DNA of 4,574 nt from the IMG/VR virus record IMGVR_UViG_2547132269_000010; one strand, 5' to 3'. The DNA comes from a virus (lineage: Duplodnaviria; Heunggongvirae; Uroviricota; Caudoviricetes). Under the pieces are notes generated by a model that made no database searches, was not told where the DNA came from, and saw only the letters and a list, made by a program, of their open reading frames with translations. The first letter of the stretch is position 1. Each line of letters opens with the position of its first letter. Positions 1-4,574 of this stretch are shown here, piece after piece. The translations under genes were made by a program, and so were the position numbers.

Positions 1-300
1 TTGATATCGAGATTTTTGGCAGCACTATTACTACAAGATGCACATGATCTGGCTATACATTTAACTCCAGAACCTCGCAATCCTTTATCCCGCAGGGTCC
101 TAAAGCGGTATTTTGGCGTCCAGATTATGTGATATTTGCAATGCCAATATACATGTGAATGTGACTAGTCCTGATATAAGTTGACACTTTTCTGTCTGTA
201 ATGGAGTGCCCCGCGCCCCTGGACAAATCTGTAGATAAACGGAAATGCACCAAGGGTTCTTCTGTTTGCGAATGCTAGCTGTCTAGTCGTTGATTAAGCC

Positions 301-330
301 TTGACATTTGTGATTCATGTTATCCATAGT
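301..330 (+). promoter_or_regulatory. candidate sigma70 promoter for the zinc-ribbon/MTase operon
   Basis: Perfect -35 hexamer TTGACA at 301-306; only weak -10 candidates 17-18 bp downstream (CATAGT at 325-330); about 40 bp upstream of the 373 start codon. A second TTGACA at 181-186 has no properly spaced -10. Confidence 0.25.
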
Positions 331-372
331 GAGTAAATCATTTTCATCTGATGTTATAAAAGAGAGGTACCA

Positions 373-648
373 ATGGTGACATGTAATTGTTGTGGTAAGG
401 CTCTGAACAAAGGTATTTGGACTCTGGATGGCAAATATAAAAGTTGTCCATTATGTTCATCTACGCATGGCGTTGAGCACATTTTCCGGCGCTATCCCGA
501 GGACTTTGGAACCACTGATGCCAGGATTACGCCGACGAACCCTGATGGTGCTCAAAGCTATTGTATTGACTGTCGGGGATTAGATAAAGGACAATCATCA
601 CTGGTAGATCTCACCAAACAGAGATTATGTAATACAGTGCGAATTTAA
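373..648 (+). CDS. small Cys-rich zinc-ribbon protein (91 aa) with Mu Com-like N-terminal finger; putative regulator or accessory factor of the downstream methyltransferase
   Basis: ATG at 373 preceded by Shine-Dalgarno AGAGAGG (361-367, 5-nt spacing). N-terminus has CxxC (C4,C7) then GKALNK, then CPLC (C25,C28); same spacing and the C-x-K-x-L-x-K signature as I recall for phage Mu Com (CKNCNKLLFK...CPRC). Further CxxC at C64/C67. Stop TAA (646-648) overlaps the ATG of the next gene (TAATG). Function inferred, not demonstrated. Confidence 0.6.
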   Translation: MVTCNCCGKALNKGIWTLDGKYKSCPLCSSTHGVEHIFRRYPEDFGTTDARITPTNPDGAQSYCIDCRGLDKGQSSLVDLTKQRLCNTVRI

Positions 649-1328
649 TGAATTTAAATCAGTTAGATGCAGTTGAATGGCTAAAAACACTCCCTTCTGG
701 GAGTGTTGATCTATTTGTAACAGATCCTCCATATGAATCGCTTGAAAAACATAGAAAAATAGGCACAACAACTAGGCTGAAAGTAAGTAAGTCTTCTAGT
801 AATGAATGGTTTGCTATCTTTCCAAACAGTAGATTTGGAGAGCTTTTAACCGAAATGTATCGTGTCCTCAAAAAGAATCGTCATCTATATATTTTCTGTG
901 ATCAAGAAACTATGTTCCATCTGAAGCCGATTGCCGAAGATGCTGGGTTTAAGTTTTGGAAACCAATTGTCTGGAACAAGATGGCTATCGGAATGGGATA
1001 TCATTACCGTGCCAAGTACGAATTTGTTTTGTTTTTTGAGAAAGGAAAGAGGAAGCTCAACAACTTAGGTATACCTGACATCTTGGAAGTGAAGAGGGTG
1101 ATGAGAGGGTATCCAACCGAAAAACCAGTTGATCTTATTAAGATTTTGATTGAGCAAAGTACAGTTCAAGGTGAGTCTGTATGTGATCCTTTTTTTGGTT
1201 CTGGCTCAACTTTAGTTGCAGCTTTCGAGTTAGGACGTTCTTTCTTAGGGACAGATATTTCGCCATCAGCTCATGCTTACTTTAAGCAGCGGTTATCTGA
1301 CAGCCAGTTAATACTTGACACGCTGTAA
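648..1328 (+). CDS. DNA methyltransferase, beta-class N6-adenine/N4-cytosine family (226 aa), probably N6-adenine-specific
   Basis: Motif IV DPPY near the N-terminus (VTDPPYES, codons at 723-734) and motif I near the C-terminus (DPFFGSGST, about 1185-1211), preceded by the conserved YPTEKP box: the beta-class order IV then I. No Shine-Dalgarno; start overlaps the upstream stop, implying translational coupling. Stop TAA at 1326-1328. Confidence 0.9.
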   Translation: MNLNQLDAVEWLKTLPSGSVDLFVTDPPYESLEKHRKIGTTTRLKVSKSSSNEWFAIFPNSRFGELLTEMYRVLKKNRHLYIFCDQETMFHLKPIAEDAGFKFWKPIVWNKMAIGMGYHYRAKYEFVLFFEKGKRKLNNLGIPDILEVKRVMRGYPTEKPVDLIKILIEQSTVQGESVCDPFFGSGSTLVAAFELGRSFLGTDISPSAHAYFKQRLSDSQLILDTL

Positions 1329-1336
1329 TGTTGGAT

Positions 1337-1358
1337 GGGGTTTGTAGTGAACCCCTTT
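1337..1358 (+). terminator. possible weak intrinsic terminator after the methyltransferase gene
   Basis: Hairpin GGGGTT (1337-1342) / AACCCC (1350-1355) with 7-nt loop, followed by only TTT (1356-1358); begins 9 nt after the MTase stop codon. The short T-tract makes this weak. Confidence 0.3.
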
Positions 1359-1596
1359 CAAAGAGTTTAGTCTCAAGGATTACTGGGGGGGAAGTAAAGT
1401 GATGAATTCAACTCCCTGATTGGAAGCTGAACTCGAATGTGCAATTAGGTGGAGATATTTGAAGCTTTAACGGAAGATTTCTCTTGTTGGGGTCTGAACT
1501 ATCTTTTCTGCATTTGGAGTGCACTCAGACCTCATGAATATAACGGTGGGTTACCGCCGAACGAATAGGAAAATAGATACTGGAAAAAATCTAAAA

Positions 1597-1785
1597 TCAT
1601 GGCAGTTTTTGTTGACCACTACAGTTCTTGGTAACAGGGATAATGTAGCGAAACTGCCAGATTTTACTTCCGCTGGATTTGATGAGTAGCTCAAGGCCAT
1701 CACCATCATAGAGAACATAGTCCGCTTCTTTGGGGTTGGCTGATTCGATTTCCTTAACGGATAGAGGTTTGGTTTGTCTTGCCAT
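1597..1785 (-). pseudogene. truncated/decayed P4 (IntA)-type tyrosine integrase, N-terminal arm-binding region only
   Basis: Minus-strand ORF from ATG 1783-1785 gives MARQTKPLSVKEIESANPKEADYVLYDGDGLELLIKSSGSKIWQFRY, closely matching the conserved N-terminus of enterobacterial P4-family integrases as I recall them (MARKTKPL...DGDGL.LLIKSSGSK.WQFRY). The frame stops after 62 codons at 1597-1599. An overlapping shifted frame reads ...FRFFPVSI..., possibly residual frameshifted homology. No catalytic domain follows on the minus strand. Confidence 0.6.
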
Positions 1786-1803
1786 TGCCGGGTTTCCATA
1801 GTT

Positions 1804-1858
1804 TTAGGCACCTCAAAAACAATAAAGCTTTATGAGGTGCCTAACAAGGTGCCTAAAA
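1804..1858. promoter_or_regulatory. palindromic plus direct repeats of AGGTGCCTAA immediately upstream of the integrase start; candidate operator/Int-binding or leader structure
   Basis: Perfect 12-bp inverted repeat TTAGGCACCTCA (1804-1815) / TGAGGTGCCTAA (1833-1844) with 17-nt spacer, plus a third direct copy AGGTGCCTAA at 1847-1856; lies 19-73 nt upstream (minus-strand sense) of the integrase ATG. Confidence 0.3.
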
Positions 1859-1910: not shown

Positions 1911-1942
1911 AAAAAAGCCCGCGGAGCTTACGCCGTGCGGGC
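1911..1942 (-). terminator. putative rho-independent terminator (minus strand) between crr and the integrase region
   Basis: GC-rich hairpin GCCCGC(GG) at 1917-1924 pairing with (CC)GTGCGGGC at 1933-1942, flanked by A6 at 1911-1916 on the plus strand (a U6 tail after the hairpin on the minus-strand transcript). On the plus strand it is followed only by TCTT. Confidence 0.35.
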
Positions 1943-2146
1943 TCTTAGGACTTCATCGGATGACTCTGGTAATCACCGATGGAGAATTTTGGTGGGCTGG
2001 CGGAGTTTGAATAAATATTGTATTGCTTTGATTTTTAATGATTTTGTTTAATTCATTTTTTGTGCGTATACCTAATCGTATACCAATGGCTGGAAGTTAA
2101 TGTGAAATGAAAGCGCATTTTTACTTGGATTGATGCTATATCGTAC

Positions 2147-2270
2147 AGGAAAAAAATTTTTTTCGAAAGAACTGTTCACACTGTTCACCTTTCTGTTTTC
2201 TCCTTTTATTTCAGAGTGATAGGTGGTGAATAATGGGTGAAGGGTGAACATTCGATTCTTCACCTCCGGC
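2147..2270. repeat. crr-like cis-replication repeat unit 1 (iteron array)
   Basis: Begins with A7T7 (2150-2163). Contains TGTTCACA (2173-2180), TGTTCACC (2182-2189), GGTGAACA (2243-2250) and variants GGTGAATA, GGTGAAGG, TCTTCACC (2257-2264). Roughly 80-85% identical by eye to unit 2, offset 181 bp. Confidence 0.7.
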
Positions 2271-2276
2271 ATTCTG

Positions 2277-2326
2277 CCGGTGTGACTTGTGCAGGGGATT
2301 AATTTCCCGTGCTGAAATCACACCGG
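2277..2326. repeat. inverted repeat in the spacer between the two crr units
   Basis: CCGGTGTGA (2277-2285) and TCACACCGG (2318-2326) are perfect 9-bp inverted arms around a 32-nt spacer that contains a nested near-palindrome (GGGATTAATTTCCC). Confidence 0.4.
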
Positions 2327-2449
2327 AAGAAAAAAAGTTTTTTTTGATTTGATTGTTCACACTGTTCACCTTTCGTTTTTCTCTTTTAATTTCAGTGTGA
2401 TAACGGGTGAATATACGGTGAAGGGTGAACAGTGGATTGTTCACCTTCG
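2327..2449. repeat. crr-like cis-replication repeat unit 2 (iteron array)
   Basis: Begins with A7-G-T8 (2330-2345). Contains TGTTCACA (2354-2361), TGTTCACC (2363-2370 and 2438-2445), GGTGAACA (2424-2431) and variants. Direct repeat of unit 1. Confidence 0.7.
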
Positions 2450-2461
2450 GGGAATTCAGGG

Positions 2462-2488
2462 ATAAAAAAAGACCGGCAGATGCCGGTC
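2462..2488 (-). terminator. rho-independent terminator of the primase-helicase gene
   Basis: Perfect 7-bp GC-rich stem GACCGGC (2471-2477) / GCCGGTC (2482-2488) with 4-nt loop, followed on the minus-strand transcript by a U7 run (plus-strand A7 at 2464-2470); starts 16 nt after the TGA stop at 2505-2507. Confidence 0.65.
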
Positions 2489-2504
2489 AGATGAGTCATG
2501 ATGG

Positions 2505-4574
2505 TCAGGTTGTTGCAGGGTCGTCACATTTTGGCAGCCAGTCGCCGTAGCTTTCCTCTTTCAGCGTCAGGTTGGTCTGTATCCCCTGTTTGGTATGGCG
2601 CTTCTCGTAATTCAGTCCGTATTCCTTCAGCATCACCGGCAGCCCCAGCCCGAACATTTTCAGACTGAGTACATTCCGGTAGCCGTTTGCCTCCATGTAG
2701 GCCAGATAGGCGTGATAGAGGTATTTACGGTAATTACGCGGGATGATACTGGCGTTCCCCATATACATGCCGCTGGTCTGCGGCAGGGTTTCCAGATAGC
2801 CGATAAAATCAAACGTCGGGTCGGCATCCCGTTTGATGTTCAGTGCCTCGTCTGAGTTCTGCTGGGACTGAAGCAGTGACCGGGCGAGCATCGGGTCGCT
2901 GAACTTCTGCATCAGGTGACGCACGATGACCGCCAGCTCGCGGGTGATTTTGTCCTTAAGCTGCGGGTCGCGCTCCTGCGGGGCTATCTGTTCCGGGAAG
3001 TGAATAATCACCCGCCGGCGTGACACGCCGCCGCTGCGGTCGGTGAAGCGCATCGGGTTATTGTTCACGGCCAGAATCACCGCCGGGATATGCGTGGAGT
3101 ACGCATCCCGGTATTTCGGGTCAACGGACACCGCGTCGCCGCCGGTGATGGCCTTGAGTCCGGCACCGTCGCCGCTCCATTTTTCCTGGTCCGGCAGGCG
3201 TATCAGTGAGAAGCCAGTTAACGCGGCACGTTCACGCGGGGATTCCAGCGTCTCGATGGTGGCCGACGTGGCGTTATCCTCCCCGGCCAGCAGGGTGGCT
3301 ATTTCGGCCATGATACTTTTGCCGCTGCCGCCGGGACCGGTCACCTCCAGAAAGAGCTGCCAGTCGTAGCGGTTTGCCAGCACCATAAACAGTGCGGCCA
3401 GAATCACGTCGCGTTTTTCCGCACGACCACCGGCAGCACGGTCAAGCCAGCGCCAGAACGCGGGAGCGTGGGTTTCCAGCGTTTCACCGTCCACCGGCGG
3501 GGTGAAATCCACATCACACAGGGTACGCATCCAGTGTGACGGACTGTGCGGGTGGAACGTACCGTTCTGCGTGTCGAGCACGCCGTTACGAAAGCCAATC
3601 AGGCGGCGGGAGGGGGCTTCCTGCTGCGGAATAATCAGCTTCAGGGTGTCCACCACGGAGGCCACCTTCCCGGAGGAGAACGGCGCGCGCAGCCGCTGAA
3701 ACAGCCCGGCCACATCCCGGGCAAAGTCCTGTGGTGGCAGCACCTTCCAGACACCATTTTCATAGCGGGACAGAAGCTGGCCGTTGGCATCGACCGCGAG
3801 CGCCTCGCCGTAATGCTCATAGATACGCATGGCCTTTTCGCTGGTACTCATGGCGGAAAACTCCGCTTCGCTCATGGTGTCGAACGGGCTTTCAGCCGGT
3901 GGCCGGATTGCATCATAAATGGCCTTACGGGTGGCCTCCCCGCCGTACTGCGTGAAGGCATCATTCCAGTCACCGAAGACCGGCGGCAGGGCAACAACAC
4001 CTTCACACGCATCTGCGGCTGCGGCGGCTTTTTTCTGGCCGTCACCGCTGAGGTCACGGTCAGCGGCAAGGACAATCTGACAGGCGGGGGGCTTCTGCCG
4101 GGCAAGGCTGGCCAGAGAAAGGAGGTTCACGGAAGAAAGCGCCACCATCACCGTTTCACCGGTCAGGTGATGCACGGTAAGTGCGGTCGCGTATCCCTCC
4201 GCTATCCACAGACGTTTTCCGGCCTGATTCTGTCCTTCAAGGATGTGACAGGTGCCCCTGACCTGTCCGCCTTTCAGGGTGCGCTTACGGCCGTCAGCAC
4301 TGATTAACTGAAGGTTAACCAGTTCGCCGCTGTCGTCATACAGTGGCACCACAAGGTCACCGGCGCGCCAGCTCACGCCACCGGCTCTGTGTGTGCCGGT
4401 CAGCATCCGGCATTCCCGGCCGGGAAAGCCCTTGCGGGTCAGGTAGGCGTTACCGGTTCCGGGACGGGGTTTCGCCATCAGGGTTTGTGCCAGTGCGGCG
4501 GCGTTCTTCCGGGCGGCTTCTGTTTCAGCAACGGCGGCGGCCGTCACTGCCGGGTCAGCCGGTGGCAGGCTGGC
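2505..4574 (-). CDS. alpha: P4 alpha-type bifunctional primase-helicase (replication protein), 5'-partial; N-terminus beyond the window end
   Basis: Minus-strand frame is open from the window edge (no stop between 4574 and the first start-like codon, GTG at 4545-4547) to TGA at 2505-2507. Translation has TOPRIM-type primase motifs (WIAEGYATA with Glu codon at 4197-4199; AADRDLSGDG), a Walker A P-loop GPGGSGKS (3315-3338) and a C-terminal domain. It is followed by TGTTCACC iteron repeats, the known binding sites of the P4 alpha C-terminal domain. Confidence 0.9.
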   Translation of the reverse strand, partial: ASLPPADPAVTAAAVAETEAARKNAAALAQTLMAKPRPGTGNAYLTRKGFPGRECRMLTGTHRAGGVSWRAGDLVVPLYDDSGELVNLQLISADGRKRTLKGGQVRGTCHILEGQNQAGKRLWIAEGYATALTVHHLTGETVMVALSSVNLLSLASLARQKPPACQIVLAADRDLSGDGQKKAAAAADACEGVVALPPVFGDWNDAFTQYGGEATRKAIYDAIRPPAESPFDTMSEAEFSAMSTSEKAMRIYEHYGEALAVDANGQLLSRYENGVWKVLPPQDFARDVAGLFQRLRAPFSSGKVASVVDTLKLIIPQQEAPSRRLIGFRNGVLDTQNGTFHPHSPSHWMRTLCDVDFTPPVDGETLETHAPAFWRWLDRAAGGRAEKRDVILAALFMVLANRYDWQLFLEVTGPGGSGKSIMAEIATLLAGEDNATSATIETLESPRERAALTGFSLIRLPDQEKWSGDGAGLKAITGGDAVSVDPKYRDAYSTHIPAVILAVNNNPMRFTDRSGGVSRRRVIIHFPEQIAPQERDPQLKDKITRELAVIVRHLMQKFSDPMLARSLLQSQQNSDEALNIKRDADPTFDFIGYLETLPQTSGMYMGNASIIPRNYRKYLYHAYLAYMEANGYRNVLSLKMFGLGLPVMLKEYGLNYEKRHTKQGIQTNLTLKEESYGDWLPKCDDPATT

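Follow-up and report, generated by a model that had tools for sequence, protein, structure and literature searches.

Beside the replication genes of a P4-like satellite, a minus-strand reading frame of 62 codons begins like an integrase and then stops, and the locus raises the question of which mobile element this frame came from and how the remainder of the gene was lost. The DNA analysed, called the window below, is the entire draft contig AEJU01000216.1 of GCA_000208425.2 (4574 bp), which ends within the satellite's alpha gene. The frame is very probably a genuine but inactive remnant of an IntA-type integrase, truncated by an insertion sequence (IS) and belonging to an island at ssrA. Just as probably, the window as a whole spans a junction at which the attR end of the satellite meets the left edge of this older, decayed ssrA island. 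The features of the window are as follows.

3-158: fragment of an IS200/IS605 tnpA gene
162-201: IS3-like end
373-648, plus strand: open reading frame (ORF) for a 91-aa Cys-rich protein, island cargo
648-1328, plus strand: type II-like N6/N4 DNA methyltransferase (MTase) gene (Pfam N6_N4_Mtase, 5.5e-36; PADLOC MTase_II)
1329-1496: AT-rich spacer from the MTase stop to the IS remnant (GC about 0.40-0.44)
1497-1623, plus strand: right-end remnant of an IS3-family (IS911-like) element, from blastn and tblastx against the intact IS
1624: junction base between the IS terminus (1623) and the integrase DNA (1625)
1597-1785, minus strand: 62-codon chimeric ORF, made of 53 integrase codons and 9 codons read from the IS (NCSGQQKLP), then a stop
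1625-1785, minus strand: what is left of the 5' end of an IntA/PRK09692-type integrase gene, with codons 1-53 at 1627-1785
1804-1856: three copies of TTAGGCACC (one on the plus and two on the minus strand), just upstream of the integrase start
1913-1947, minus strand: ssrA trailer with terminator hairpin, native tmRNA-downstream DNA
1990-2011, minus strand: degenerate ssrA-3' copy forming the attR core of the P4-like satellite
2012-2149, minus strand: satellite-side att arm with a TTGGTATACGNTTAGGTATACG motif (2063-2084)
2150-2460, minus strand: P4 crr (cis replication region), with two direct repeats of ~120 bp
2505-4574, minus strand: P4 alpha primase-helicase gene, N-terminus beyond the window (Pfam Toprim_3, D5_N, DUF5906, Pox_D5)

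The right part of the window, alpha included, is 97.6% identical to P4 (X51522, 4291-6703, with the annotated crr), the internal repeats of crr lying at 2149-2269 and 2329-2450, and the interval 1811-2150 between the integrase-stub region and crr is intergenic. Close relatives of the whole arrangement were found in a segment of CP030787.2 (99.8% identity to the window), which is the sequence of Escherichia albertii 2013C-4143 (PMC10673567), and the related loci L006-L013 are 99.3-99.8% identical over the window.

That the short frame is an integrase remnant, which the earlier note had read from the letters as an arm-binding N-terminus, is borne out by three comparisons. The 62-codon ORF matches Pfam Arm-DNA-bind_3 (E 6.8e-7, 29.8 bits, with a curated cut-off of 27 bits), though over no more than profile positions 1-40 of 83, and it matches NCBIfam PRK09692 (E 5.5e-28) over model positions 1-56 of 413, while tblastn with intact integrases encoded on E. 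coli chromosomes (L005, 413 aa; L001, 380 aa) gives 51 identical residues among residues 1-53 of the stub (window 1785 to 1627, E 1e-28). The limit of the similarity is sharp: in protein comparison it ends after codon 53, and in megablast the matches to E. coli integrase genes, hundreds of them, go no further than base 1625. Intact relatives have the domain order Arm-DNA-bind_3, Phage_int_M (residues 107-198) and Phage_integrase, and one of them scores 930 bits on PRK09692 over positions 1-413. The central core-binding domain Phage_int_M is absent from every frame of the window by tblastn, and the catalytic Phage_integrase domain, with its catalytic Tyr, is absent from the window and from the 10-kb flanks of the relatives. 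It had also been suggested that nothing integrase-like follows toward 1329, and this held in a permissive tblastn search (word size 2, E up to 100), in which no other integrase segment appeared in the window in any frame at E<1; the spacer 1329-1496 shows no similarity to integrase or IS by tblastn and tblastx, nor to E. coli genomes in distant mode. A C-terminal part displaced beyond the MTase cargo was considered as well and rejected, since the 10 kb to the left, covered in 8 related loci, holds no integrase C-terminal DNA. The stub is accordingly a gene remnant, about half of an arm-binding domain fused to 9 IS-derived codons, and since the core-binding and catalytic domains are missing, it is unable to recombine DNA and the island has no self-excision. 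The nearest well-known counterpart is IntA (SlpA) of CP4-57 in E. coli K-12, which we take to belong to PRK09692, the family model matched by the stub; like the stub, this gene comes directly after ssrA and its terminator and has the same orientation, whereas the stub keeps residues 1-53 only and is devoid of the central and catalytic domains. By alignment, the stub allele is distinct from the intA-like copy in the E. coli locus L002.

The integrase frame runs directly into the end of an IS. Positions 1521-1623 are 83.7% identical to the end of a complete-length IS in L002 (3716-3819), the transposase C-terminus ALRPHEYNGGLPPNE is kept in the plus-strand translation of the remnant (tblastx 3e-16, from 1497), and the terminal inverted repeat of the IS ends ...TTGTTGACCACTACA at 1623. 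The terminus ...CCACTACA is identical across four different, unrelated flanks, which places the last IS base at window position 1623, and 1514-1623 is matched by thousands of E. coli IS3-family copies. Both marks of an IS3-family end, a 5'-TG...CA-3' terminal inverted repeat and the adjoining C-terminus of OrfB (the DDE transposase), are found at 1497-1623. A complete IS with both ends and with orfA and orfB is not present, and tblastx finds no IS similarity to the left of about 1497. Compared with intact IS911/IS3-family elements, the remnant agrees with annotated E. coli IS3-family copies in its terminal repeat (TGTAGTGGTCAACAAAAACTG...) and in the C-terminus of its transposase, but only about 105-127 bp are left here, and the element is hence inactive. 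The designation IS911-like follows what we take to be the ends of IS911; RefSeq calls the relatives just 'IS3 family'.

This remnant also accounts for the second piece of supposed integrase sequence. The peptide FRFFPVSI, in an 86-codon overlapping frame, had been taken as possible residual integrase homology, and it has to be rejected as such: it is the antisense reading of the IS right end, and the antisense frame of the intact IS (L002, 3716-4966) reads FRVFPVSVF and aligns with it in tblastx. The CSGQQKL residues of the 62-codon ORF itself likewise come from the IS end by tblastx, all nine of its final codons being a translation of the IS inverted repeat. No frameshifted integrase segment exists, so that, of the proposed inactivation by frameshift and deletion, the deletion stands and the frameshift gives way to a clean junction with the IS end at 1623/1625.

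How the gene was shortened can be read in part from the relatives. Comparison with them placed the junction and also revealed an intermediate form, as seven loci (L006-L010, L012, L013) carry a longer integrase remnant of 117 codons that is 95% identical to the intact integrases, ends ...AERWWNV exactly at the same IS terminus, and contains a complete Arm-DNA-bind_3 domain (68 bits, positions 1-83 of 83). Since this remnant ends at the IS terminus, the IS would have inserted after codon 117. Window positions 1-1623 are 99.3% identical to L007 9354-10977, so that the left flank and the IS end are common to both forms, and the single window base 1624 then stands in place of 188 bp of L007 (10978-11165), so that about 187 bp, comprising codons 54-117, have been lost on balance. 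The joint of the window form sits exactly at the IS terminus. Transposase-mediated adjacent deletions end exactly at an IS terminus, and the loss in the window form may have been such a deletion. The order and mechanism that we infer would thus begin with the insertion of an IS3-family (IS911-like) element into the island's IntA-type integrase after codon 117. In the simplest account, a single deletion from inside the IS, whose remnant is bordered on its left by non-IS DNA, would then have removed most of it together with integrase codons 118-413, bringing MTase-bearing DNA against the IS stub, and in the window lineage a further loss, flush with the IS terminus, would have left codons 1-53 only. 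The suggestion that the MTase cargo had directly replaced the body of the integrase is not sustained, because the MTase segment is joined not to the integrase but to a breakpoint inside the IS remnant.

The last of these steps was probably not a simple one. The 62-codon and 117-codon forms disagree at 9 of the 161 integrase positions, 8 of these differences being synonymous (window 1625-1785 against L007 11166-11326), while the MTase differs at 0 of 956 positions and the IS stub at 1 of 127, so that the 5' fragment of the integrase is the most diverged segment between otherwise near-identical loci. The contrast of 9/161 with 0/956 makes a single recent deletion of 187 bp too simple an account, and the history must also have involved either recombination between alleles or a more extensive loss, still flush with the IS, that ran into a tandem integrase copy. 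Such duplicated integrases exist at the ssrA site in E. coli (L002, L003), and in a further locus, L015, a window-type integrase 5' end is combined with an L007-type spacer, a mosaic that indicates recombination around the IS junction. The junction base 1624 (or a slip in a run of T) falls outside the proposed deletion account and is unexplained by it, and a scan of species-representative genomes for either junction sequence gave no match.

The same divergence gives some room to a different origin of the short form: the IS end may have come to lie at codon 53 through a separate insertion event, or because an MTase-bearing unit transposed there, and not by deletion from the 117-codon form. The two 5' alleles differ by 5.6%, mostly at synonymous sites, next to nearly identical DNA to the left of the IS end, and another IS3-like end at 162-201 could be imagined as the other boundary of such a unit. 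This origin is nevertheless unlikely: both forms share the internal IS breakpoint and more than 9 kb of left flank, so that an independent insertion would need the same deletion twice; no C-terminal part of the integrase lies on the far side of the putative unit; and the IS-like ends at 162-201 and 1623, as read from their letters, do not form a matching inverted-repeat pair. Deletion from an IS-interrupted integrase is the reading followed below.

The question of which element owned this integrase is answered by the DNA between the stub and the satellite. On the minus strand, 1990-2011 reads TTCAAACTCCGCCAGC-CCACCA where ssrA has TTCAACTCCCGCCAGCTCCACCA in the alignments, and beyond this ssrA-3' copy, which is the attR core, come the native trailer with its terminator (stem at 1929-1915 in a terminator scan) and then the stub. 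The trailer in the window is continuous in sequence with the intact tmRNA gene of L015 (an assembly of SRR22864269). In that locus smpB and an intact tmRNA gene (ARAGORN, 2434-2796, tag ANDENYALAA) are followed by the same trailer, an identical 62-codon stub and junction, and the MTase, and no P4-like element is present. The integrase stub therefore adjoins the tmRNA attachment site on its downstream side and reads away from it, as is seen both in L015 and, through the ssrA-3' copy, in the window. Neither the window nor the E. coli loci L001-L005 contain a tRNA or tmRNA gene, only the ssrA 3' copy, and an Rfam match to IsrM was dismissed at 23.9 bits against a gathering score of 376. In L005, the same type of integrase follows the attR of a different prophage. 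Relative to the ssrA 3' end, the attR core lacks one base in the window and four in the L007-type loci (L007, about 11530-11550), and it is intact in E. coli E47 (L001, 6367-6390); the degenerate core might impair excision of the satellite.

Sequence motifs separate the two elements in the same way. The TTGGTATACGNTTAGGTATACG motif at 2063-2084, confined to satellite-bearing loci, occurs again directly upstream of the satellite integrase in E47 (L004, 13578-13599), and a GGTATACG motif pair is common to both satellite arms and does not occur in the satellite-free loci. Situated on both att arms of ssrA-specific P4-like satellites, TTGGTATACGNTTAGGTATACG probably marks the arm-type sites of the satellite integrase. 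The region upstream of the stub carries TTAGGCACC repeats (3 matches against 0.01 expected) and not the satellite-arm motif; the repeat region is identical in the satellite-free L015, and the repeats are putative arm-type or operator sites of the island integrase. P4 similarity, for its part, covers 2150-4572 only and ends at 2150. The satellite with alpha and crr is thus very probably a separate element that integrated into ssrA upstream of the island, which makes its attR (1990-2011) abut the island's old attL and ssrA trailer, and the stub. Elements have accumulated here in tandem at ssrA, a well-known integration hotspot (PMC10673567).

P4 itself offers a reason to think otherwise. Circular P4 has the order alpha-crr-attP-int, known in part from its annotation, and the window shows the same order with a stub of P4/IntA type; the stub could therefore be taken as what is left of the P4-type element's own integrase, with the satellite immobile, domesticated or plasmid-borne, which is how the earlier note had understood the locus. 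The P4 integrase and its attP, which are leuX-specific, share the integrase superfamily and domain order with the family of the stub, and the alpha and crr sequences beside it are, as given above, nearly those of P4. Unlike in P4, the att site here is a copy of ssrA and the stub lies outside the satellite. An identical stub follows intact ssrA where there is no satellite at all (L015), the DNA between the att core and the stub is native ssrA trailer, the homology to P4 has already stopped at 2150, and the relatives are chromosomal, so that ownership of the stub by the satellite is very unlikely.

Satellites of this kind, moreover, carry their integrase at the other end. Integrated P4-like satellites have the order int-hotspot-psu (PMC9122126). 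In E. coli E47 (L004), two ssrA-3' copies some 10.4 kb from each other enclose a closely related satellite, whose own integrase (403 aa) is encoded at the far end, beside a SIR2 gene and psu, with the second ssrA-3' copy upstream of this integrase; the protein is only 51% identical to the stub over 53 aa, and the gene has its own arm-site motif. A Phage_integrase gene likewise lies beyond psu and the hotspot in L007-type loci; in CP030787.2 the 10 kb covered run out at a SIR2 gene and an IS, short of any integrase. The idea of a satellite left without its own integrase, unable to integrate or excise, accordingly finds no footing in a fragment that lies beyond attR and is present in a satellite-free locus. 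A domesticated or plasmid-borne replicon fares no better, given that all the close relatives found are chromosomal and that related satellites have their integrase at the opposite end. There is no true plasmid among the matches; stub and MTase are not found together in any plasmid or phage record, and P4 itself matches 2150-4572 only, so a plasmid or phage origin was rejected. The stub bears no information on the satellite's own ability to integrate.

Some side observations concern these tandem arrays. E47 (L004, which is NZ_CP121151.1 1132000-1149500, together with L001) carries a P2-like prophage, a P4-like satellite and an IS1-cut IntA-type island integrase in tandem at a single ssrA site, with a dCTP deaminase gene between the prophage and satellite integrases and a SIR2 gene in the satellite hotspot. 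The psu-adjacent hotspot varies among the relatives (L006-L013, about 19000-20400), holding NACHT/STAND in L006, SIR2_2 in L011, and a 294-aa protein of no assigned family in L007-type loci.

If the stub is an island remnant, it may still be asked whether it is only debris. The short ORF could be a retained, functional mini-protein that binds arm sites, for example as a regulator or as an interference factor against ssrA-targeting elements, where binding to the arm sites of related ssrA-targeting islands or phages would modulate their integration or excision. The start codon, the upstream region and the three TTAGGCACC repeats are intact and conserved, nonsynonymous changes are few, and the 117-codon form of the relatives contains a complete Arm-DNA-bind_3, for which reason that form might be the more plausible candidate for expression as a DNA-binding protein than the 62-codon form. 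Such a function is extremely unlikely all the same, as the window form retains just profile positions 1-40 of 83 and takes its last 9 residues from the IS, a low pN/pS fits equally well with allelic differences that predate inactivation, no promoter-like site was found in 1300-2520, and two truncation lengths occur side by side, as decay predicts. Were it true, a fragment of an integrase would have been domesticated for interference. A sequencing or assembly artefact, which a 4574-bp draft contig with many IS fragments might suggest, can be set aside almost entirely, since 7 contigs, drawn from at least 5 samples and including the complete genome CP030787.2, encode the identical 62-aa product, which excludes an assembly error, the same junction is found in that closed genome and in several independent read-set assemblies, and the missing gene body of about 1.1 kb is no base-call error.

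The island from which the dead integrase descends is the EspC/EspG island present in the near-identical E. albertii genome CP030787.2. In the relatives, espC (the EspC autotransporter gene) and an EspG homologue lie 3-8 kb to the left of the MTase; this espC/espG island at ssrA is seen in L006-L013, outside the 4.6-kb window itself. In the account given in PMC7545054, the EspC island of enteropathogenic E. coli (EPEC) is located at ssrA and has an integrase, several transposases and a VirA homologue. As that paper relays it from Mellies et al. 2001, the EPEC island resembles the relatives in its integrase, transposase remnants, espC and VirA/EspG homologue, while the version described here comes from E. 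albertii-type genomes. The integrase is reduced to 53 or 117 codons in the present loci, whereas the island versions of E. coli have full-length (frameshifted) pseudogenes or IS-split genes, from which it follows that the island integrase has decayed repeatedly.

The cargo of the island in the window consists of the 91-aa Cys-rich ORF, which gives no Pfam, NCBIfam or PADLOC match, and the MTase gene, whose start it overlaps (TAATG). This module was not found at megablast level in 5,426 complete E. coli genomes. Mobilizable plasmids of 4.9 kb from E. coli, Klebsiella and Raoultella carry the same ORF and MTase pair in the same order, as does Salinivibrio (about 54% amino acid identity). A restriction enzyme gene is not seen, and the pair is therefore a conserved module of a small protein and a methyltransferase. 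To the left of the cargo, the window is a patchwork of IS debris: the tnpA fragment at 3-158 is about 90% identical to E. coli IS200/IS605 copies, and the 40 bp at 162-201 are identical to one end of an IS3-like (ISEc16-type) element.

Because the stub belongs to the old ssrA island and not to the satellite, the locus represents ordinary island decay, and IS-linked decay of this sort is common and already known, with no new biology implied. The main value of the result is correct annotation. At tRNA and tmRNA hotspots several elements stack in tandem, and an integrase fragment beside satellite replication genes can come from a neighbouring older island; assigning the stub to the satellite would wrongly mark the latter as immobilised or plasmid-borne. 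For the EspC-type island of E. albertii-like genomes, the consequence is that its own recombinase has been lost, and the locus illustrates clearly how an island can be locked into the chromosome, through insertion of an IS and then through IS-linked deletions.
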